This document shows positions 1 through 17,754 of a stretch of DNA of 35,321 nucleotides, piece after piece (the stretch's first letter is position 1; the number at the start of each line of letters is the position of its first letter). The position numbers and the translations under genes were made by a program. This DNA is from a virus (Duplodnaviria > Heunggongvirae > Uroviricota > Caudoviricetes): IMG/VR virus record IMGVR_UViG_648276647_000008; one strand, written 5' to 3'. Under the pieces are notes generated by a model. It did no database searches. It worked only from the letters and a program-made list of their open reading frames with translations, and had not been told where the DNA came from.

Positions 1-1747
1 CTGATGATGCTGGAACATAATCGCTATTATTTCCTGCTTTAGGATTAGCAGGGTTTCCAACAGTTATAACAGAATCAGCAGTAGCATAAGCGATACCTAC
101 TTTGACATTAGTATTCAGATCGTAACCGTAATAATCCTGCAAAGCTGTACGAATAAATGTTGCAGTCTGACCACTTAGCAATGAACGCCCTGTATCAATC
201 CCTCTCGAATCATCCCAACCACGGATAAACTCACCGCGTAAATCAGGTAATTTTAACGTTGGGTAAACCTTTGCCAGATTTGGGTACTTTTCAGAAGAAA
301 ATGCTGCTCCGTTACATTTCAGCCACCCCGTTGGCGGTGTGGCTGAGGGCCACGGAACAGGTACACCAACGGGCAGCGCCGAGCCTTCCCCCAAACCAAG
401 GTAATCAAGAACGCTCTGAATACTGGTCTTACCAAGAATGGCGCGTCCAACACTTGTCAATGCAGTTAACGCGGCACGATCAACACCTGTGAAATAAGGG
501 AGTTTATCTGCTGCTGTAGCTAGTGCCGCTAGAGCAGTGAGCGTAGCGTCTGCCGCTTGCTTTCCATTAGCCAAATCATATGCAGCCTTGACAGCTTTCG
601 GTGTGGCGGCCAGCACTTCGGACGTGCTATTGGTAGCACTGCTGAGTTGGACTATCCCTTTTTGAGCCGTGGTTGCATCCTGGGCTGTATACTTCCCGTT
701 AGCCAGGTCATATGCAGCCTTGACAGCTTTCGGTGTGGCGGCCAGCACTTCAGACGTGCTGTTAGTGGCACTACTGAGCTGAGTGATGCCTTTCGCTGTC
801 AATGAAGCTGTTGGCACACCAGTGATCTGATTCCAGGGATGTGTATGACTGGATGGTGCCTTTCCGGCTGCTAGATCGTATGCAGCTTTAACCGCTTTTG
901 GAGTTGCAGCTAATGTTTCAGAAGTGCTGTTGGTGTCGCTACTGAGCTGAACTATCCCTTTTTGTGTCGTGGTTGCATCCTGGGCTGTATACTTCCCGTT
1001 AGCCAGGTCATATGCAGCCTTGACAGCTTTCGGTGTGGCGGCCAGCACTTCGGACGTACTGTTAGTGGCACTACTGAGCTGAACTAATCCCTTTTGCGTT
1101 GTGCTTGCATCCTGCGCCGTATACTTGCTTTTCGCCAGATCGTAGGCTTTTTTAACTGCCAGCGAACTCGCAGCAACATCACTTCTGGTACTGGTTACAG
1201 AGTCTGAAATATCAATGCCGATCGTGCGGTTGATACGCTCGGATGTATCAATCATCTCTTGAGTAATGGTAGATACGCCAGCAGGGATATTCACCGTACA
1301 AACCAGCAGTTCCCCATCACCTAACTGATATGAATCGGTATAGGTTCTGGCAACAAATTCAGCTGCATGAATATGTGACGCGGTATTCACCTGATAGGTA
1401 TCTTCTCCAAGAAGGTATCTTCCCTTCAGCACAATTGCATATTTCTTGCCTGCGTTAAGTGCAAGAGATATATCCTTACGATGCTGAATAGTTACCTGGT
1501 AGAATTCACCAATATCCACTGACGCCGCGCCAGCGGTTTTATCTCCATCCACTGAGGTGATTAACAGGTTCATCCCACCGCCAGGCTTAGGCAAGAAACC
1601 AGCATAAAATCCCGGGTCAACAATTCCCCTGAATTTTCGGTTTAGAGCGGCTGACAGATATGGTTCGTGGTATTGCACATCAGCCACCAGAGCCAACGAC
1701 TCGGGTGATGGGTAAGTAACCGATGTAACAACTGTAACGTCATTCAT
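1..1747 (-). CDS. S: Tail fibre protein, N-terminal/constant part (5' partial; runs off window start)
   Basis: Minus-strand frame open from ATG at 1747-1745 (RBS-like AAGGA upstream) to the window edge. Region ~555-1200 holds about five tandem ~150-nt coding repeats translating to ...KAAYDLANGK...SSATNSTSE.LAATPKAVKAAYDLA..., the classic phage tail-fibre repeat. Sits downstream of R/baseplate genes as in P1. Confidence 0.75.
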   Translation of the reverse strand, partial: MNDVTVVTSVTYPSPESLALVADVQYHEPYLSAALNRKFRGIVDPGFYAGFLPKPGGGMNLLITSVDGDKTAGAASVDIGEFYQVTIQHRKDISLALNAGKKYAIVLKGRYLLGEDTYQVNTASHIHAAEFVARTYTDSYQLGDGELLVCTVNIPAGVSTITQEMIDTSERINRTIGIDISDSVTSTRSDVAASSLAVKKAYDLAKSKYTAQDASTTQKGLVQLSSATNSTSEVLAATPKAVKAAYDLANGKYTAQDATTTQKGIVQLSSDTNSTSETLAATPKAVKAAYDLAAGKAPSSHTHPWNQITGVPTASLTAKGITQLSSATNSTSEVLAATPKAVKAAYDLANGKYTAQDATTAQKGIVQLSSATNSTSEVLAATPKAVKAAYDLANGKQAADATLTALAALATAADKLPYFTGVDRAALTALTSVGRAILGKTSIQSVLDYLGLGEGSALPVGVPVPWPSATPPTGWLKCNGAAFSSEKYPNLAKVYPTLKLPDLRGEFIRGWDDSRGIDTGRSLLSGQTATFIRTALQDYYGYDLNTNVKVGIAYATADSVITVGNPANPKAGNNSDYVPASS

Positions 1748-1758
1748 CAAGCATATCC

Positions 1759-2193
1759 TTATGCTGTAGTCGAGTTTATGGCCATAACTGCGGTATATGT
1801 TTTGCCCACATACAGCGAGTCTTCTTGGACACAAATAATGGCGATTGGCTTATTCTCGTTATCCAGAACAACCAGAGTGTTGAATGGGTAGTTTTTCCCT
1901 TCCTGCAACTGACTTTGATCAAGGTCCATTCGGACAGTAATTATCCCGCCTGAGTAGGTTGGGACGAGGTTGATGGTGCAAAATTGACTGGTCAGTTCTG
2001 CCAGATCGAAAGCCTTTGGCAGTTCTCCAATCTCATAAGTGCCATCTCCTTTCTTAGTAACCAGTGAACTGGTACCGAAAACGGCCTTGCTGATTAAAAA
2101 TCGAGAGCCTTTGTTAATGGACGATTCAGCGCGCCGCTGATAGTAATAGTCCAACAACTGACTCTTATAGAGGTTTGTTGAGACGTCAGACAT
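1759..2193 (-). CDS. Tail fibre-associated protein (P1 R-like, by position)
   Basis: 144-aa ORF directly upstream of the tail-fibre gene on the same strand; assignment is by synteny with P1 (16-R-S) only. Confidence 0.4.
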   Translation of the reverse strand: MSDVSTNLYKSQLLDYYYQRRAESSINKGSRFLISKAVFGTSSLVTKKGDGTYEIGELPKAFDLAELTSQFCTINLVPTYSGGIITVRMDLDQSQLQEGKNYPFNTLVVLDNENKPIAIICVQEDSLYVGKTYTAVMAINSTTA

Positions 2194-2271
2194 GATTTTC
2201 CCTAATCAATGTTGTGAAGCCTCATTGTAAGATAAGTAACTTGTCACCCCGCCCTGCGGACGGGGTGATTG

Positions 2272-3111
2272 TCACGCATCGCTATCCAACAGCAAATCAT
2301 CTGCGCGGGTGCGATCAAACGTAGGCGTTGCTTTCACAATAGTGCCGCCCGGCGTTGCAGTGATCGGGGCGTTAATCGACGTAACTTCAGTAAGCGAAGT
2401 TGTATCCGAAGTTTCAAACCAGCAGAATGCTTTTTCGGTATCAGAAATCTCATTCAAAGTGATCATGTCGGCCTGTTCATTTACAACAACCGACAAATAG
2501 AGCGTAAGCCCATCAAACACTATATGCAGTGGCAGTAGAGGCTTTACGAACTGATTAAACTTTCTGAGAATTTCTTCTGTAATTGCGGACTGATCTATCG
2601 TTCCAGTAATACCCATTGTCCGGGCCAGGTCGTTTATGGGAATACTGATCATTCCTCTGGAAGTCAGAAACATCTCACCGAATGTGCCGCCGGTGGTTTC
2701 CAGTGTGCTTTCTGGAATCAGGACCGTGCCATAGGGATGACGTTCAAAGTCCACCGGAGCATATATGGGATCCCATAAAACCGATATACCGTTAAATTCG
2801 CGATAAATTGTCTGGTTTATAGGGCGTTCAGTACCCTTAAAATGGATCTCATCAAACCGCTGTTGTAACAACATCGGAACGGAAGATGAATTCGACGTTC
2901 TGATAGTAAAAAACTGGCCAAGTTCATTTGTCCTGGTCTCCAGATCCTCCTTGCTCATGGAGAAAATAGACTTCCGGTTGGTAATTCGCTCCAACCATGG
3001 GTCAACAAAGGTGTCCATCATTGACTGAACCAAATCAGCCAATGATTTATAGAGCAATGACTTTTGCTTAGCTGATGTAAGCCGGTTATTAAACCAGGAA
3101 CGTTGCATCAC
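2272..3111 (-). CDS. Baseplate/tail-fibre attachment protein (P1 gp16-like, by position)
   Basis: 279-aa ORF whose start overlaps the stop of the upstream baseplate gene (ATGA-type coupling); synteny only. Confidence 0.4.
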   Translation of the reverse strand: MMQRSWFNNRLTSAKQKSLLYKSLADLVQSMMDTFVDPWLERITNRKSIFSMSKEDLETRTNELGQFFTIRTSNSSSVPMLLQQRFDEIHFKGTERPINQTIYREFNGISVLWDPIYAPVDFERHPYGTVLIPESTLETTGGTFGEMFLTSRGMISIPINDLARTMGITGTIDQSAITEEILRKFNQFVKPLLPLHIVFDGLTLYLSVVVNEQADMITLNEISDTEKAFCWFETSDTTSLTEVTSINAPITATPGGTIVKATPTFDRTRADDLLLDSDA

Positions 3112-4541
3112 TCCTCCTCATACGAAATATTGAAGGTGGAGTTTCCTGTATCCAGATAAACGAAATCGTAAAAGCCGTTGGACTCATTCCACTCGACAAA
3201 CTCCAGATAAAAGTCGCGGAAATAGCTCAACGTTTCGATAAACGCCCAAACGTCTTTTTTCTTAATCAGGATGTACTTTCCGACGCGGTTCGGATCAAAG
3301 AAAGTTGAGTCGCGCCCAAATTTTGTTTCCAGTGCCGACTTCAGCTCATCGGTCACGTTCTCAATGGTCAGGCTTGCCGATATCCGTCCGGTGATGGTTA
3401 TCTTAAATGGTAGTTTTCTGACCTCTTTATAAGAGAATTTCTTGTTCAGTTCATTCGGTACCTTCTTAAAGGCAGTCAGGATCATTTCTTCAAGCTCTGA
3501 CTGGCTTTTATTTGGATGCCATCCTGAAATAAATATCTTATTGATATTCTGAACATTATAAGCACCATCTAATTTCTCTTGCTGGCCTTCGCCCCATGCC
3601 TTTACCCAGGACAGCCCCGGGATGTTACGAACCAGAAAATACGTATAGTCCCCGCCCCATACAACCTGATCATCATAGGCAAGGTAATATTGTGCACGGT
3701 TACGTGTGATCTCCGTTGTTTCAGCATCGGTACCTGCGGTTATAGGTGTCGTTGTCTTAACTGAAATCAAATTAGCTAAATTAGCCGCAGAATCGACAGG
3801 CGTCAGGTTTTGGCCAGCAACCAGGGTTATATCGCCGTTGGTGCACCATACCTTAAGCGTAATTGTCGAGCCTTCTGGCGGTATTTGCCCAATTAGCCCA
3901 TCGCCGAATCGAACACCCAACTGTTCGGATGGTTTATAAAACTCAACGTAGACCTGGCTTTTACTACCAGCTAACCGGAACATTGTGCTGGAAGACCACT
4001 GCGTGGTCTTACCATCGGTCGTCACGAATACTTCCAGCTTATAGCAGACAGCAGTGAGAGCCTTTGATAACACGACTTCCAGAAATTCTTTGGCTGCCGT
4101 AACGGTATATGTCACCTCCTGGATTTCCAACTGTGCCACTTCTACCGTACCGGTGCCGTCAACCAACCTGCATACATCCATAGTCATGTAAGGGTACTGG
4201 TCGTCAGATATTAAAGGCGTGTTTTTGGGGATTACCGCTGGAGCATCTTCACTTGTGGCTGTGATCTCAACCATCCCGGATGACGGTGTTGGCTTGGTAC
4301 CAACGTAACTATTCGTTTCTGCCGCTGCCAGGATAGAGGAACGCCGCGTCGCGGTCGATATAAAGCCTTCAGCCAGTGCCGCATCGGCATACTGAAAGCA
4401 CCTGTAGACAATCTGGGTAATAAACAATGTCAGCATCGAGACAAATTGAGAGCCGACAAACTTCGACCAGAATGAATCTTTCTCGACAAGCTCTTCAAAC
4501 TCTGCACGAATACTGTCTTTAGTCGGTGTTGTTTTACTCAT
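3108..4541 (-). CDS. Baseplate wedge protein (J/gp6-like; P1 bplA-like)
   Basis: 477-aa ORF translationally coupled between a gp25/W-like gene and the gp16-like gene; size and position typical of myophage baseplate J-like protein. Not verified by alignment. Confidence 0.45.
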   Translation of the reverse strand: MSKTTPTKDSIRAEFEELVEKDSFWSKFVGSQFVSMLTLFITQIVYRCFQYADAALAEGFISTATRRSSILAAAETNSYVGTKPTPSSGMVEITATSEDAPAVIPKNTPLISDDQYPYMTMDVCRLVDGTGTVEVAQLEIQEVTYTVTAAKEFLEVVLSKALTAVCYKLEVFVTTDGKTTQWSSSTMFRLAGSKSQVYVEFYKPSEQLGVRFGDGLIGQIPPEGSTITLKVWCTNGDITLVAGQNLTPVDSAANLANLISVKTTTPITAGTDAETTEITRNRAQYYLAYDDQVVWGGDYTYFLVRNIPGLSWVKAWGEGQQEKLDGAYNVQNINKIFISGWHPNKSQSELEEMILTAFKKVPNELNKKFSYKEVRKLPFKITITGRISASLTIENVTDELKSALETKFGRDSTFFDPNRVGKYILIKKKDVWAFIETLSYFRDFYLEFVEWNESNGFYDFVYLDTGNSTFNISYEEE

Positions 4542-4897
4542 AGCACCACGTCCTGTGTGATAGTTATATCCCTGATACGAATGGATATTTTCAACTTATC
4601 AAAAGCATCTCCCTCGGCTACTGACAAGCCAGAAATCGGTATGTCAGGTAAATCTACCGTCAGTTTTTGCAACAGCATTGCCTCAACCGCAATTTGAACA
4701 TGCGACAAGTTGGTCGGTTCGTGTTTAAACTGCGGTAAAACATTGCCCCATGACGGATCTCCGTATACCTCACCCTGATAAGTGTTTAGCCACTCATATA
4801 AACGAGCGCCCCAGGCCTCCTCCTGGGACTCATACGTTTTTACGCCGGATAACTCCAGCGTCAGCAAAGGATCAATTTCGTTATTGTTGGCCATCAA
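4538..4897 (-). CDS. Small baseplate protein (gp25/GPW-like; P1 pmgA-like)
   Basis: 119-aa ORF overlapping the sit stop and the bplA-like start; position typical of a GPW/gp25 baseplate wedge subunit. Confidence 0.4.
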   Translation of the reverse strand: MMANNNEIDPLLTLELSGVKTYESQEEAWGARLYEWLNTYQGEVYGDPSWGNVLPQFKHEPTNLSHVQIAVEAMLLQKLTVDLPDIPISGLSVAEGDAFDKLKISIRIRDITITQDVVL

Positions 4898-7800
4898 TCA
4901 ACTCTCGCGTAGTCATTCATCAACGGATCATCAATTGACAGTGGTACCGTGCGCATAACGCCCGGCTGAGGCGTGCTGACCTTTACGACAGTTCCCTGGC
5001 CTTTCGCCGAGTCTTTGGTGTGCTCTTCAATCCTGGCAAGCAATGAGGTCATCTGCGCAAACAGCCGCTTCGTTTCACCATCAAGTGAAACGGTATTATC
5101 AGCCAACTGCATTGTCGGCTTGGCACCGGAACCGCCAAGGTCACTAATAACCTGCCCGTCTATCTGCATACGACCGGTTGGTTGCTGCAAATCGTTGGCG
5201 GCAGTCGTCACCTGGGACGTGGAGGCTGGTTCAGGCGCATTATTTTTCCGCATCCCCGGCGAGTTGCGGAGTTTATCGAATAGTCCATCAATCCCCATTT
5301 GTGCGCCGAGTTGGTCAAAGTAACTTGAGTTGCTGGCCACCGGACGCGCCTCTTCAACTGGCATCGGAGTATCAACATACACATTGCCAGCTGCTGTTGC
5401 GGTCCCCTTCCCTCGTGCACGTTCTTCGAGCGTTCCCTGAACGACTTCCCGACGCATACCCCGGCCATTCATGAATTTGTTGACCAGATCGTTAACGCCA
5501 ACAGCATTGCCGATTTTGTCTACCAGACCGCCTTTCTCAAACGGGCTATCACCAGGGGTAAACGCCAGACCAGTAGACTGATCGATAACGGCGTTATCAG
5601 GCAGTTGTCCCCTCACTCCATATTGCGCCCCACCCTGTGCTCCTGCTCCAGGTGTATAGATTTCACCACCTAAATAGCGAGCACGATGAGTATTGACCTT
5701 GATCGCGTACTCACGGTTTTCCTTCGATAAGTCACCGGTGCCTTTTTTCCACTTATTAATAGTGCCAAACCCAGCGTTATATGCAGTGATGGCCTCGTTT
5801 AAGTCTCCATTGGCTTGCTTCAGATACTTGCTCATGAGAAGAGCCGCAGCTTCTGCCGATTTCACAGGATCAAATGCATCCGGTTCCGATATCCCTGTCT
5901 CTTTACGAGCAATACTCGTGAACTGGAACATCCCGAGTGCGCCACCACTTAACTTTCCATCTGGTGATCTTGTAAGCGGAGACTTTGCGTTAGGATCCCC
6001 TCCTGATTCAGTTGCAGCAATCGCGTAAAGAGTGCCTTCTGGAAGACCATATTTATTCTCTAGTTCAGCAAAATATGGAGCCAACTTATCGAGATTTGCC
6101 TTACCTTCAGCGCCAAGACTTCCTACTTTTACATCCAAGTTGCCATTGTTGTAGGTATCCGCAGCTTTCTGAATGTCATTCCTGGTGCCAGTGGTATTAA
6201 GCGACGATGATGACGAGCTATTTTGACCAATAGCTTTATCAATTTTCTGCAACGCGCTATTGCCCGTTTCTACGGCATTTGCATTGATAATCTGATTGGC
6301 AGTTTGTTTAACTGTTTTATTGCTATCTTTCGCCGTGTCCAGTGCCGCATTTATCACGCGGGTAGCAATATTACTCTGTTTGGCATCGGATTCAGTTTTA
6401 GAATTAGACGTCTCCTGGTGGCTATTAACCGGAGCTTTTAACTCTGGAATGATTTCTTTCGCATTAGCCTCGCCGATCGGATTGGGTATTTTTGATACAA
6501 TCATTGCCGCAGGGGTATTTTTAACGGCATCAACCGCTGCATCTAATGCTTTACCGGGTAAATTTTTAACCCCATCCCAAATATTACCAGCCGCCTCTTT
6601 AATGTGTTTCCCTGGGTTCTTAATGAAGTCAATTGCACTATCAATTGCATCACTGAAAACCTGTTTCAGGTTATCGACAGTAAAGAAGTCTTTTATGGCA
6701 TCCAGCTTTTCAAGCAACTTATTAGATGTATCGCTAAACCATGCTGAAACAGCATCACCAATCTTTGCTGTGTAATCATCGAACTTGGTAGAAATGGTGT
6801 CGCCAAGGTTAGAAATATATGTTTCTAAGTTGGTAACCCCGCTATCAATGGCCTGGGCAATACTTTCCGTCGAAAATGATTGCAACATATTGCCGATATC
6901 CTCAAATCCAAGTGATTTGAGAACATCACCAATAGCACTGCTAATACCAGATACCAGTCCCCCCAAATCAAGAACATTGGCTAACGTATAAGCGGCTTTT
7001 TGCTGGAATGATGGATCTTGTCCTGATTTAAGCCCAAACGCTCGACGTTGCGCTTCTGTATCATTCCAACCGGTTACCGCATCATAAATACCTCCAGCCA
7101 CTGTGCCGACTAGGGGAATTGCGCGTAACGCCCCTTTACCAACTGCCTTTAATCCAAGTTTACCTGCTGCCCGGGCAGCCAAATCTCCGCCTTCATGGGC
7201 GAGAGTCTTCTTGCCCCCACTGCGTAGCATTCCTACGAGTCTCTTTGCCCCCAGAGCGCCAAAAGCGAGTGCTCCAGCTTTTTTCAGCATGCCACGCCCC
7301 ATTAACAACGACGCGACGCCACCGGCCCCCTTCCCTAACAGGCTAAATAGTTTGGACAGCAAGCCGCCCTTCTTTTTCCCGGTGTTTTTGGCTATCTGAT
7401 CAAGGGCGCTGAGAATCTTGTCATTGCCCTCTTTAATTTCGCTGGTCTGCTCCTGAAGTTCCTGAACCGTCCGTTTTTGGGTGTTAACCTGAACGACATC
7501 GGCACTATTTTGCGATTTACGCCTAAAAAAACCTTTTCTACGGCTGTTATCGTCATTGCCACGAATCACATCGGCAATAGACTTTCTGGCACCATTAAGC
7601 GATCCACCAACTTCTTTTGATATCCCGCCAAGCTCCTTCCCTGCTGCCCACAATGGACCAGCAACGGCATAACCTAACGCATCGACGGCACGAGTCTCTG
7701 AAGGGTTACCTATGCCTTCAGCTACTTTTGACAGTTTTTTTAATAAACCTGATTCAGCATTTAGACGCTCATCATCCTCTTTGCGCCTGGCCTTTTCAGC

Positions 7801-12831: not shown

Positions 12832-12908
12832 CTTAGTAAAACGGATGCCGGGATTGGAACCCCGGATAATGCAAAAGGCGACATAGACGCCAAAAGCGTC
12901 TTTTTTTT
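12832..12908 (+). ncRNA. c4: Candidate c4-like antisense RNA (immI repressor RNA)
   Basis: Non-coding segment between promoter/operator and icd. Hairpin GCCGGG-ATTGGAA-CCCGG presents ATTGGAACC in its loop; a second hairpin GACGC-CAAAA-GCGTC is followed by T8 (intrinsic terminator). Complement GGTTCCAAC occurs ~13010 and a second ATTGGAACC copy at ~13045. Boundaries approximate. Confidence 0.4.
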
Positions 12909-13093: not shown

Positions 13094-13315
13094 GTGGCTA
13101 CTATCCCTACCCCTACTCATCCTGAATTTATCTGGCGCTTTTACTCCTGCCAAAAACACCACTATCACTTCGTTATCGCAGCAACAGAAGACGAAGCACG
13201 CTCTCAATTGCCTGATGGCCCCTGCATTTTTACAGCCCGTTTTTCAACTAACTCGCGCAATTCACTTAGTTACTGGAGCCTCCCCTTCTCTGCCGACGTT
13301 CAGGGGGGTTTATGA
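13094..13315 (+). CDS. icd: Small protein overlapping the ant start (Icd-like cell-division inhibitor)
   Basis: 73-aa ORF with GTG start at 13094 and AAGGAGG RBS ~10 nt upstream; its stop overlaps the ant ATG. Size and position match P1 icd as recalled. Confidence 0.55.
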   Translation: MATIPTPTHPEFIWRFYSCQKHHYHFVIAATEDEARSQLPDGPCIFTARFSTNSRNSLSYWSLPFSADVQGGL

Positions 13316-14715
13316 AAACACCTCTCGTCACCCGTAATGAAATAGCCGAAGCGATCGCCCTGCATACTGCCTGTATGCCGACACGGGAGATCCCCGGCGC
13401 AATTGCCAACTATTTCATGATAACCAGACGTTTTTATACCCGAACAGATAAGGCTGTGATCAACAGGCTACTGATAGCCGAGATCAGGGATTATTTGATT
13501 GAACAAGGACGTCTACGTTACGCAACAGTGGCAGCAGAAATGAGAAAGGAGGCACACAGAGTGACCGGTAATAATTTGAATGTTGAAAAAACAGCACCTG
13601 TTACGTCAGCTACGCCAGCACCAGCCGTGAATATCATCCCCAACACCGGAGACACAATCGACAGCCTGACACTGTTAAAGATGGTCAATGAAGCGCGTAA
13701 GTTATGTGGGGAACCAGAGGTTCGGAACAACAAATTCATCGAAAAAATACTCGATGAGCTTGATGGTGAGCACTACACAAAAAGTGTAGTGGAAAAAATG
13801 AACAAAACATCAATGCTTGTCATAACCATGACATACAAACAAGCCCTGCGCGTTGCTGCTCGCGAATCGAAAGCGGTCCGCCGTTCGCTACATACCATGA
13901 TTCAGGCATTGGAACCTATAAATGTTGAAAATCATCCTGATGAAATTCCCGTTCTGGAATGGCAGGGAGTACGCGTCGTGACAACCGAGACTCTTGCTAG
14001 AGGGTATGGCACTACACCTATTCGTATTCAGCAGAACTACAATCGCAATGAAGAACGATTTGTAGAGGGTAAACACTTCTTTAAAATCAAAGGAGATGAG
14101 ATAAAAAGTTTGCGACTATCTTTTAGCGAGTTGCAAATTTCCCCCAAGACCAGATCCTTAATACTCTGGACCGAACGCGGAGCGGCACGCATGTCTAAGA
14201 TCGTAGACACAGAGCAAGCGTGGGCATTCTTTGAAAAACTGGAAGACAGCTACTTCCGGCAAAAAGAACAGCAACCGGTCGCAATCCCCCAGACGCTTCC
14301 CGAAGCTCTGCGCCTGGCTGCCGAGCTGGCTGAACAAAAGCAGCTACTGGAACAGAAAACCCACCAGCTAAATCAGCAGCTGGTGGCCGCAGCCCCTAAA
14401 GTCGATTTTGCCGACCGGGTATCAGTGGCTAATGGAATCCTGATCGGGAACTTTGCAAAGGTCGTTGGACTTAAGCAAAACGCCCTTTTCTCATGGTTGC
14501 GCCAGAACGGCATTCTCATGGCTTTTGGTGCGCGCAAAAACGTACCGCGCCAACAGTACATCAACGCCGGGTATTTCACGGTGAAAGAAGTGGTGCTGGA
14601 TGATGAAAATGGCTACCAGATACGGCTGACGCCCCAATTAACGGGTAAAGGCCAGCAGTGGTTAACTCGCAAGCTACTTGATGCTGGTTTGTTAAAACCA
14701 GTAGCAATAGGTTAA
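13312..14715 (+). CDS. ant: Antirepressor (Ant; AntA-like N-terminal region plus KilAC/ANT C-terminal domain)
   Basis: 467-aa ORF; C-terminal ~140 aa are ~65% identical to the C-terminus of the downstream KilA-like protein (read from the translations). Internal in-frame Met residues could give a shorter Ant2-type product. Confidence 0.75.
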   Translation: MKTPLVTRNEIAEAIALHTACMPTREIPGAIANYFMITRRFYTRTDKAVINRLLIAEIRDYLIEQGRLRYATVAAEMRKEAHRVTGNNLNVEKTAPVTSATPAPAVNIIPNTGDTIDSLTLLKMVNEARKLCGEPEVRNNKFIEKILDELDGEHYTKSVVEKMNKTSMLVITMTYKQALRVAARESKAVRRSLHTMIQALEPINVENHPDEIPVLEWQGVRVVTTETLARGYGTTPIRIQQNYNRNEERFVEGKHFFKIKGDEIKSLRLSFSELQISPKTRSLILWTERGAARMSKIVDTEQAWAFFEKLEDSYFRQKEQQPVAIPQTLPEALRLAAELAEQKQLLEQKTHQLNQQLVAAAPKVDFADRVSVANGILIGNFAKVVGLKQNALFSWLRQNGILMAFGARKNVPRQQYINAGYFTVKEVVLDDENGYQIRLTPQLTGKGQQWLTRKLLDAGLLKPVAIG

Positions 14716-14728
14716 CAAAAGAAAAAAA

Positions 14729-14773: not shown

Positions 14774-14790
14774 TCTGGATCGAGTCAGAA
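14774..14790 (+). promoter_or_regulatory. C1-operator-like 17-mer (TTTGCTCTAATAAATTT) upstream of kilA
   Basis: 16/17 match to the recalled C1 operator consensus, ~90 nt upstream of the kilA start, consistent with a C1-controlled kilA-repL promoter. Confidence 0.55.
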
Positions 14791-14879
14791 AAATTTGCTC
14801 TAATAAATTTCGTTTTCTAAGTGCAAAGAATCACCATTTCGAGCTGGTGATTGAAGGTTGATGCAAATTTGGAGAAAAA

Positions 14880-15680
14880 ATGCAACAAACATTCAATGCG
14901 GATATGAATATATCAAACCTTCATCAAAATGTCGATCCTTCAACCACTCTGCCTGTTATTTGTGGTGTTGAAATTACGACCGACCGCGCTGGCCGTTACA
15001 ACCTTAATGCTCTACACAGAGCGAGCGGACTCGGTGCCCATAAAGCGCCAGCTCAATGGCTAAGAACGCTGTCAGCAAAACAGCTCATCGAAGAGCTTGA
15101 AAAAGAAACTATGCAGAATTGCATAGTTTCGTTCGAAGGCCGTGGCGGCGGCACTTTTGCCCATGAATTGCTCGCTGTGGAGTACGCAGGCTGGATTTCT
15201 CCCGCGTTTCGGCTGAAGGTAAACCAGACATTTATCGACTATCGAACCGGAAGATTACAACCTGCTATTCCGCAAAGTCTCCCTGAAGCTCTCCGTTTGG
15301 CTGCCGACCTGGCAGAGCAAAAGCAACGGCTGGAGCAAAAAATGCTGATGGATGCACCTAAAGTCGAATTCGCCGAACGCGTTGCTACCGCCAGCGGGGT
15401 TCTAATCGGCAACTATGCCAAAGTGCTCGGCCTGGGCCAAAACTATCTCTTCACCTGGTTGCGTGATAACGGAATTCTGATCGCAACCGGTGAACGCAGG
15501 AACGTCCCCAAACAAGAATACATATCCCGTGGGTATTTCACCCTTAAAGAAACCGTGATCGATACAAGCAATGGAAGCAGGATTTCTTTCACGACTCGTA
15601 TAACCGGCAAAGGTCAGCAGTGGCTGATGAAGCGATTGCTTGATGCTGGTGTGCTGGTACCTGTCGCGGCAACGCGCTAA
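14880..15680 (+). CDS. kilA: KilA (KilA-N DNA-binding domain plus KilAC domain)
   Basis: 266-aa ORF, ATG with GGAGAAAAA RBS; N-terminal KilA-N-like segment and C-terminus paralogous to Ant; length matches P1 KilA as recalled. Confidence 0.7.
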   Translation: MQQTFNADMNISNLHQNVDPSTTLPVICGVEITTDRAGRYNLNALHRASGLGAHKAPAQWLRTLSAKQLIEELEKETMQNCIVSFEGRGGGTFAHELLAVEYAGWISPAFRLKVNQTFIDYRTGRLQPAIPQSLPEALRLAADLAEQKQRLEQKMLMDAPKVEFAERVATASGVLIGNYAKVLGLGQNYLFTWLRDNGILIATGERRNVPKQEYISRGYFTLKETVIDTSNGSRISFTTRITGKGQQWLMKRLLDAGVLVPVAATR

Positions 15681-15709: not shown

Positions 15710-16554
15710 ATGCTGGCTAAAGTCACTTTCCTGAGCTGTATAACGATGAGCGATTTTACTTTTTCTGGCTATGAATTGGCCTGCTTTGTAACACACTCCG
15801 GTCTATCCCGTAGCGCCGGGCATATCCTGTCGCAATGTGCAAATCTCGCGGCAACAACCAGTGAATACTTCATTCACAAGCCTCACCGCCTGATCGCGGC
15901 AGAAACCGGTTATAGCCAATCAACCGTCGTTCGTGCATTCCGTGAAGCTGTAAACAAAGGAATCCTGTCTGTAGAGATTGTTATCGGCGATCACCGTGAA
16001 CGTCGCGCTAACCTGTACCGGTTTACACCATCCTTTTTGGCCTTCGCACAACAAGCCAAAAATGCGCTGATTGAAAGCAAATTAAAGATCTCTTCAGCGG
16101 CAACCAAGGTTAAAGCTGTTCTCGCTAAGACATTGGCTTTATTTAATTTTTTATCCACACCCCCATGTCAAAATGATGCCCCCTCCCCCTGTCAGGATGA
16201 CGTGGCAATAAAGAATAAGAAGTCACAAATAAAAAAACAAAAAGATCAGTTTCCGGCGGTGCCGAAACGACCAGCCTCAAAAAACTGACTTCATGGATCG
16301 CCGAGGCAAAAGCAAAGGCTGACAATCTGCGGTTATCCAAAAAACGCGCTCAAAAACATGAGTTCAAGCAGAAAGTAGAGGCGGCAGCGCGGAAATATGC
16401 TTACCTGAAGAACAAGCGTTCTCCTGATATTGGCGGGATATCAAACTTCGATAATCTGCCGCATTGCATGACGGTAAACGAAGCTCTTAATGCGGTTTTA
16501 GCCAAAAATAAAGATAACGAACAATGGGGTATACCGGCAGGATTCAGAGGGTGA
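15710..16554 (+). pseudogene. repL: Lytic-replicon initiator RepL-like gene interrupted by an apparent -1 frameshift in an A-rich tract
   Basis: Frame 1 (15710-16288, 192 aa) has an HTH-like segment GYSQSTVVRAFREAVNKGIL. The overlapping frame is open from 16219 to the stop at 16552-16554 with no ATG until late. Joining them through AAATAAAAAAACAAAAAG (16228-16245) gives ~281 codons, the length recalled for P1 RepL. Confidence 0.45.
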
Positions 16555-16601
16555 TAGATTGCTCTAATCTGGAGTCACCTGGCATTTTCAGTTTGAGGTC
16601 G

Positions 16602-16850
16602 GAGATGCAATCTGATTTTTTACAGTTAGCGATCGCTTTTGCAGGATATGTTTGTATTGGCTTCTGTGTATACATGATCAGCCGAAAAATGCTTGTCGAT
16701 ATCGACCGCAAAGAACAAGCAGAGGAGATCTTAGAATGGATTTTCTTTGGCGCGGTCTGGCCATTAGGGATCATGTTTGCTGCAACGTTTCTTCTGATGT
16801 GGATATTCACCCTTCCAGGTGATTTATATAGAAAAAAAGCCAGACATTGA
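16602..16850 (+). CDS. Small two-TM membrane protein
   Basis: ORF track starts at 16524, but that overlaps the repL C-terminal frame; ATG at 16602 (MQSDFLQLAIAF...) has a GAGG RBS. Two hydrophobic helices. Function unknown. Confidence 0.35.
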   Translation, partial: EMQSDFLQLAIAFAGYVCIGFCVYMISRKMLVDIDRKEQAEEILEWIFFGAVWPLGIMFAATFLLMWIFTLPGDLYRKKARH

Positions 16851-17032: not shown

Positions 17033-17629
17033 CTATGCCGCCTTTCCAATTATGGATTCAGCGACCAGAACAACCCCATGCTTACTTCGATCTGGGTGTT
17101 CACTCCATATCTCGGATTCAGGAATACTTACCCCGTCATAGCAAACACGTTCGCCGTCAAACGGGTAATACTGAGCGGCATCGGTGTCGAGGATAAACAC
17201 TTTTAGCTCGGAAGAGCGACGGGCGATGTGTTGCCAAAGAGCTTTTCCACCTTCGTATTGCTCATTATCACTGAGCAAAACAACACCAGCTTTTGAGGCT
17301 ACGGTTTCGTAAACAAAAGTAGCTAAACCGACATCCCGGACGGTTCCATCAACCACGATACCTTCAATCTGGGCAACATCGCTATCCTCCCAGAACTTCC
17401 TTACCAGTACGCCTTCAAGCTGCGGGCGACGTTGAAGTTCAAGAGTAGCGACAACCTTATGGCGCATATCACCATCGATAACAGAAGGCGCAGCCTCTAT
17501 TACAGCTGCAAATGGGGTTTTGGAATCCCATATAACCTGGTAAAGCACACCCTGGATGGTAACTCCGTCCAGGATCGAAAATCGACGAGCGACAGTACCC
17601 GGGGAGTACGACATTGGAATCACAGCCAT
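17033..17629 (-). CDS. Hypothetical protein
   Basis: ORF track gives 210 aa; ATG at 17629 (MAVIPMSY...) has an AAGGGGGA RBS. An operator-like variant (revcomp of GTAGTTTATTAGAACA, 17683-17698) lies upstream on the minus strand. Confidence 0.4.
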   Translation of the reverse strand: MAVIPMSYSPGTVARRFSILDGVTIQGVLYQVIWDSKTPFAAVIEAAPSVIDGDMRHKVVATLELQRRPQLEGVLVRKFWEDSDVAQIEGIVVDGTVRDVGLATFVYETVASKAGVVLLSDNEQYEGGKALWQHIARRSSELKVFILDTDAAQYYPFDGERVCYDGVSIPESEIWSEHPDRSKHGVVLVAESIIGKAA

Positions 17630-17754
17630 TTTAGAGTCCCCCTTTAACAGTACAGGCACAAACATCTACCTCAATAATTGTAGTTTATTAGAACATTAAT
17701 AATCTAACATAAAACTCAAGACAATGTTATCGATGCATTCTTATATAAAATAGT

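Follow-up and report, generated by a model that had tools for sequence, protein, structure and literature searches.

The window analysed here is a stretch of 35,321 nucleotides that corresponds to positions 2389-37709 of scaffold GL883903.1 (assembly GCA_000176555.2) of Escherichia coli M605, a commensal B2 strain (PMC4182557). The gene for lytic replication, repL, is located in the window downstream of kilA, under the C1-controlled promoter PkilA with its operator Op53 (Table 1). The ORFs for plasmid maintenance, repA (286 aa), parA (398 aa) and parB (333 aa), are intact. In P1, kilA and repL reportedly form one operon, with the origin oriL inside repL. The DNA of the repL region is 98-99% identical to repL of P1, P7, other Punavirus records and about 500 P1-like plasmids, which indicates that the split gene described below is a homolog of repL and not a chance resemblance. 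This identity, and the position of kilA upstream as in P1, confirm the assignment to repL made in a preliminary description of this DNA.

Table 1 Features of the kilA-repL region, with positions in the window.
Feature	Position	Strand	Remarks
PkilA (P53) promoter and C1 operator OrepL/Op53	14776-14810	+	Identical to P1; P1 annotation transferred by alignment
kilA	14880-15680	+	Intact, 266 aa; first gene of the kilA-repL operon, directly upstream of repL
repL, 5' frame	15710-16288	+	ATG start, 192 codons, TGA at 16286-16288
Private substitution A to G, Thr157Ala	16178	+	Sole mismatch to 22 relatives; in the Pro/Cys-rich linker of RepL
Putative equivalent of element AT2 of oriL	16206-16247		42 bp, 79% A+T; 43 bp in P1
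Lesion site	16229-16231	+	A-T-A, compared with A-T-T-A in nearest relatives (alignments, repaired query)
A7 run	16231-16237	+	Read from the sequence; length unchanged relative to every relative examined
repL, 3' remnant, -1 frame	16237-16554	+	105 codons (TKRSVSGG...GFRG) and TGA

An ORF of 108 codons (16524-16850), in a frame different from that of repL, overlaps the 3' end of the gene. At this position relatives are annotated only with an 81-aa hypothetical protein, WP_001426344.1, which starts downstream of repL, while P1 has a C1 operator (Orlf/Op55) at the equivalent position; homology to P1 stops at about 16568. The segment 17001-17759 is missing from both close relatives, which have hokD there, and from P1, which has rlfA/rlfB; an ORF of 210 aa on its minus strand (17033-17665) has no match in Pfam. 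The Dam/Dmt-like methyltransferase ORF (30758-33346) has 862 aa, compared with 754 aa in plasmid pFORC64.1; within it, 750 nt (31480-32230) stand in place of 426 nt in the relative without aligning to them, an in-frame mosaic replacement. The Ant1-like antirepressor (13312-14715) has 467 aa with ORF6N and KilAC (ANT) domains, and its strong divergence from both relatives at about 13770-13820 indicates that the ImmI region is mosaic. The lengths of intergenic homopolymers also vary among relatives (T8/T7, A7/A6 and A6/A7 at 12901-12908, 14722-14728 and 33688, respectively); at 14722 the window agrees with P1.

In the window, repL can be described as composed of two overlapping frames. The 192-codon ORF consists of 176 native RepL codons, which include the winged-helix domain, followed by 16 out-of-frame codons (QKDQFPAVPKRPASKN) and a TGA. 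The second frame (register 15712) stays open between 16220 and the TGA at 16552-16554 and reads ...TKRSVSGGAETTSLKKLTSWIAEAK...IPAGFRG. The string AAATAAAAAAACAAAAAG is located at 16227-16244. Joined, the two frames make 281 codons, equal to P1 RepL, and the same start-to-stop span is 845 nt in the window and 846 nt (281 codons) in P1 repL. The preliminary description had reported an N-terminal frame ending at 16288, an overlapping frame with a long C-terminal extension but no start codon, a split by a frameshift, and a joined length of about 281 codons; all of this was borne out, the frameshift being of one nucleotide. In the alignment to P1 RepL that it had proposed, the N-terminal winged-helix region is 94-97% identical to P1 RepL and to the representative of the RepL cluster, the -1-frame remnant and the C-terminus of P1 RepL share 97% identity, and the gene as a whole shows a 1-nt length difference. 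A continuous ORF of about 281 codons with the conserved C-terminal helical region is not present in the window, where the frame stops after 192 codons.

Family assignments follow the split. The precomputed Pfam assignment of the 192-aa product is PF26868 (Phage_P1_RepL), and local Pfam and NCBIfam scans of RepL gave sub-threshold HTH hits only. The 192-aa product is matched by phrog_8046 over its full length (1-192/192) and by phrog_2418 over residues 1-180, while the 3' remnant matches phrog_7057 and phrog_2418 (179-291). PHROGs thus keeps separate families for split RepL halves, phrog_8046 and phrog_7057, the latter being the 89-aa C-terminus. The list of ORFs of at least 30 aa contains none in the frame of the remnant, which has no usable start codon of its own. 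Separate expression of the remnant was considered and rejected, because the TTG used by gene callers in relatives is a CTG here.

The reading frame is broken by the loss of one base. The allele in the window is ATAAAAAAAC, whereas intact relatives carry ATTAAAAAAAC. One T of a TT pair is lost between 16230 and 16231 (about 18618/18619 on scaffold GL883903.1), which changes the codons ATT-AAA-AAA-ACA to ATA-AAA-AAA-CAA. The missing T lies directly 5' of the A7 run, and the run affected is therefore the one of two nucleotides and not the A7 run itself. The preliminary description had placed the frameshift in a poly-A tract; this localisation was not upheld, the A7 run having the same length in all relatives examined. 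The nearest relative, plasmid NZ_JBWDPX010000002.1 of strain HCP17S3_I4, is 99.4% identical over repL and reads CACAAATTAAAAAAAC, which encodes ...KSQIKKTKRS.... A repaired query, composed of 202 nt around the lesion with one T re-inserted, aligned without gaps to 22 complete E. coli records with 99.5% identity (1 mismatch in 202 nt). Aligned with P1, Ro157c2 and 673R5, the window has CACAAA-TAAAAAAAC at the place of their CACAAGTTAAAAAAAC. A first reading of this alignment as a complex GT-to-A change was dropped after the alignment to the nearest relative and the search with the repaired query: the G-to-A difference is an inherited Val174Ile polymorphism, and the sole frame-breaking event is the deletion of a single T. 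Two private substitutions, T to C at 15907 and A to G at 16178, are found in none of the seven aligned relatives, and they represent real private divergence of the M605 copy of repL besides the deletion.

The allele is restricted to one assembly. The 192-aa protein (EGI16477.1 / WP_001311685.1) is recorded on a single contig, GL883903.1. No identical allele was found among the 514 PLSDB plasmids and the 518 records of complete E. coli genomes that match the repL stretch, and the exact mutant 37-mer was absent from collections of viral genomes, species-representative genomes and metagenome contigs. An allele private to one assembly excludes a conserved programmed arrangement.

The RepL cluster contains 5,340 member sequences and has a representative of 281 aa. 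Homologs with 47-50% identity, from Enterobacter and others, have 261-283 aa and retain the C-terminal region, which includes an invariant E..ARKYA.L block (ARKYAYL). All intact relatives have 281 aa as well. The 192-aa form is thus not the normal form of the protein, a possibility that the preliminary description had named as an objection to its own reading. In the AlphaFold model of RepL (mean pLDDT 63), a confident winged-helix domain spans residues 15-145 and is followed by a disordered linker, rich in Pro, Cys and Lys, that consists of residues 148-190. The lesion is located in this linker, at codon 176/177. Beyond it, the model has a long helix (186-236) and a short helix (256-270). Foldseek returned only generic winged-helix regulators of the MarR type, which matched the N-terminal part of RepL, and nothing for the C-terminal helices; a sequence search for solved structures related to RepL found none. 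Based on this model and on the alignments, the 192-aa product is predicted to keep the putative DNA-binding winged-helix domain and to lose the conserved C-terminal helical region. We infer that the loss of the C-terminal 105 residues would inactivate RepL.

The lesion may also affect a site in cis. Replication driven by P1 RepL depends in cis on AT2, an A/T-rich stretch of 43 bp within repL (Huan et al. 2023, PMC9948254). At its 3' end, on the bottom strand, AT2 has a 13-mer-like motif, GATCTTTTTGTTT, and a truncated non-coding repL fragment with AT2 as its sole mapped element is still a working target; single substitutions in AT2 gave graded reductions with only mild effects (PMC9948254). 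The boundaries of the equivalent element in the window were set from this published description, that is, 43 bp with the 13-mer at the 3' end. The motif GATCTTTTTGTTT is intact in the window (bottom strand, 16235-16247). The missing T lies 4 nt upstream of it, within the putative AT2, which is 1 bp shorter than in P1. One deletion thus alters the reading frame of RepL and, with AT2 placed in this way, the spacing in a putative cis site.

Is the deletion present in the cell or only in the record? We give an even chance to a genuine and recent private mutation that breaks repL in the P1-like plasmid prophage of M605, and a chance a little better than even to a real mutation of any kind, the leaky variant discussed below included. 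When about 30 kb was compared with two relatives, no private indel other than the repL deletion fell inside a conserved gene. Homopolymers of at least 6 nt number 52 in the window, and runs of at least 5 nt number 13 in repL; none of them breaks a gene. The position of the deleted base in a run of only two nucleotides, the two private substitutions in repL, and the frameshifted or missing repL of other plasmids described below count on the same side. Correct long homopolymers and the lack of any other broken gene in about 30 kb point to a good local consensus quality.

The main rival, to which we assign a substantial chance that stays short of even, is an artefact of sequencing or assembly: the cell would have an intact repL of 281 codons (ATT AAA AAA ACA), and the consensus would have dropped a T beside the A7 run. 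More than 500 relatives were compared and the allele occurs in none of them; putting one base back gives a perfect ORF, which then differs from the nearest relatives only by Thr157Ala. No decay is seen in the downstream frame, as would equally be expected of a very recent event. Moreover, the assembly is old, from about 2010-2011; we take it to be a 454-era assembly of the Broad Institute, and the 454 platform is prone to indels near homopolymers. Indel errors are also known in public P1-like records, with about 25 in pFORC64.1 and three in repL of 813R1. However, a base missing from a run of two nucleotides is not the classical kind of homopolymer miscall, none of the long homopolymers in the window appears miscalled, and the rest of the genes over about 30 kb are unbroken. 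The proposal of a homopolymer sequencing error in the preliminary description is accordingly weakened in its simple form, with the A7 run unchanged, while an artefact as such is retained as a serious explanation.

The pFORC64.1 record (NZ_CP023732.1) deserves a separate remark. Its positions 710-4900, aligned to 1059-5263 of the window, show about 25 single-base indels in tail and baseplate genes. The R, gp16, bplA and pmgA ORFs are intact in the window over this segment, and HCP17S3 agrees with the window. These indels seem to be errors in the pFORC64.1 record, which would also explain a gap in its gene table. A general signature of indel errors in the window was considered and discarded, since the 1-nt gaps at 1059-4700 were traced to this record.

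A real deletion need not be a complete loss of function, because it changes the register of the A7 run. After the deletion, the A7 run (16231-16237) is in register A_AAA_AAA, with zero-frame codons AAA at 16232-34 and AAA at 16235-37. The zero frame at the lesion, AT A_AAA_AAA C, is a canonical X_XXY_YYZ slippery heptamer for -1 frameshifting. A tandem -1 slip there would give Q-I-K-K-T-K-R-S..., i.e. the ancestral 281-aa protein, and the -1 frame runs on to 16554. We consider it quite unlikely that repL is, on this basis, a leaky 'pseudo-pseudogene', in which -1 ribosomal slippage or transcriptional slippage from A7 to A8 gives a working, attenuated lytic replicon. In its favour, IS elements make use of A_AAA_AAA, which is prone to frameshifting in E. 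coli; without stimulators the motif gives more than 0.10% frameshifting, compared with a background of 0.055% (PMC4066793). Slippage rescue of indels has been documented (PMC1088944, PMC5009743), and little protein may suffice if high RepL activity is toxic, as PMC9948254 suggests. However, the ratio of motif to background without stimulators is at most 10 (PMC4066793), which limits the expected efficiency to a few tenths of a percent. The downstream RNA folds no better than shuffled sequence (z of -1.4 to -1.5, and likewise for the helices), so a stimulator was not detected there, and upstream only a weak AAGAAG is found and no good SD-like sequence. Transcriptional slippage is efficient at about 9, sometimes 8, A or T (PMC1088944), whereas the run here has 7 A. 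The cis element AT2 is altered too. A trace of full-length RepL by slippage is plausible, while a designed or substantial rescue is not supported.

A combined variant, which we regard as very unlikely, is that the replicon is throttled: full-length RepL would be made only by rare slippage, the abundant 192-aa fragment would compete at an oriL with a shortened AT2, and the prophage would be largely locked in with occasional escape. If true, this would be a one-step route from a phage-plasmid to a domesticated plasmid.

Programmed and selected recoding, in which repL of this lineage would normally give two products by a conserved frameshift, has hardly any chance and is rejected on the alignments: the slippery register and the split-RepL families in PHROGs (phrog_8046, phrog_7057) speak for it, but the arrangement is common to no relative, the ORF is continuous in the 22 nearest plasmids and in the other sampled copies, a stimulatory structure was not detected, and other split copies are broken elsewhere (C-tracts, an A5 run, A7 to A6), which indicates independent lesions or errors and not a conserved signal. 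The preliminary description had likewise ranked this reading as the least likely.

If the deletion is real, translation would end after 176 native residues and a 16-residue out-of-frame tail. The winged-helix domain would be kept, the C-terminal helical region lost, and AT2 of oriL shortened by 1 bp. The lytic replicon, in which RepL acts on oriL inside its own gene, would then be inactive or strongly weakened, and the element would persist by its intact plasmid replicon (repA, parA, parB). We predict a plasmid prophage that is stably maintained, with poor or no amplification from oriL on induction, and rare -1 slippage on A_AAA_AAA could still yield traces of full-length RepL with the ancestral sequence. 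For P1, repL is counted among the genes known to be essential for lytic growth, and in one screen CRISPRi knock-down of repL caused no drop in P1 plating (PMC10695390). Cultures induced for wild-type repL reached an about 4-fold lower OD600, and the same source suggests that high RepL activity may be cytotoxic (PMC9948254). Such cytotoxicity offers a plausible selective reason for the loss of repL.

The M605 element would thus probably be a plasmid prophage defective in lytic replication, and one more case of the lytic-replicon decay already seen in other P1-like plasmids. If the deletion is an artefact, the 192-aa entry (EGI16477.1 / WP_001311685.1) is a mis-annotation, and fragments of this kind seed spurious 'families', such as phrog_8046 and phrog_7057. 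In either case, this is a well-known gene in which one draft assembly alone shows an ordinary deletion of 1 nt, with no new system and no recoding signal, and it has little significance beyond annotation. Of use are the definition of the exact lesion, the unchanged poly-A run, the placement of the lesion in the putative AT2 of oriL and in a slippery register, and the recurrence of frameshifted repL in public data. A single base change touches three things, the RepL frame, the cis-acting AT2 and the register of the A7 run, and repL alleles should therefore be scored for effects on the protein and on the origin together.

Broken or missing copies of repL are found in other records. Complete E. 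coli genomes, sampled evenly, gave 57 full-length repL hits, of which 2 were flagged as 'frameshifted' by PGAP, both at a C-tract. Plasmids pTET-GZEC065 (NZ_CP048027.1) and EC_T6 p3 (NZ_JBWGHW010000004.1) have the same C5-to-C4 frameshift (alignment column 451) with identical flanking SNPs, which suggests that repL is broken in a small lineage of P1-like plasmids. A related 154-aa form of RepL is present on dozens of contigs (at least 28). The repL of phage record 813R1 (ON470617.2) has three homopolymer deletions, C5 to C4, A7 to A6 and A6 to A5, and that of 673R5 (ON470615.2) has one, C5 to C4; sequencing errors may account for them. We did not retain 673R5 and 813R1 as proof that a frameshifted repL still yields virions: they seem to be phages located in genomes of clinical isolates, not isolated virions, and give no functional evidence (10.1101/2022.06.29.498070). 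Plasmid pJIE250-3 is entirely without repL (PMC6906374). Loss of RepL function is tolerated in nature, as frameshifted repL in complete plasmids and pJIE250-3 indicate, and repL is repeatedly frameshifted in public data, partly through sequencing errors.

The frameshifted copies in pTET-GZEC065, EC_T6 p3, 673R5, 813R1 and a 180-aa Shigella form (WP_284527060.1) resemble the M605 allele in having 1-nt indels in the Pro/Cys- or A-rich middle of the gene, which leave the winged-helix domain and remove the C-terminal helices. They differ from it in that their lesions are changes of homopolymer length at other sites (C5 to C4 at two tracts, A5 plus or minus one, A7 to A6), and none of those compared has the T deletion of M605. 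The heptamer is of the same type, and in the same register, as that of the IS1- and IS3-family transposases and of dnaX, in which -1 frameshifting takes place at A_AAA_AAA or A_AAA_AAG. However, those signals are conserved among homologs and usually come with SD-like and stem-loop or pseudoknot stimulators, whereas in repL a private deletion created the register by chance, no stimulator was detected, and the homologs do not share a two-frame organisation, the 22 nearest plasmids having a single ORF.

The closest known system is the lytic replicon of P1 (NC_005856, P1_gp050; PMC9948254). The window has the same gene order (ant, kilA, repL), an identical PkilA/Op53 region, 98% DNA identity and a putative A/T-rich AT2 with the same 13-mer-like motif. 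It differs from P1 by the absence of one T, which results in a 192-aa ORF and an orphan remnant of 105 codons, and by a putative AT2 of 42 instead of 43 bp. Downstream of repL, P1 has rlfA/rlfB, whereas the window has other small ORFs. Among the P1-like plasmids, those of the Ile174 sub-lineage (NZ_JBWDPX010000002.1, NZ_CP021336.1) are the most similar, with 99.4% identity over repL and the same Ile174 context, but they carry ATTAAAAAAAC and a continuous ORF of 281 codons. Judging from these alignments, the intact repL of the Ile174 sub-lineage evidently represents the ancestral state of the M605 allele.
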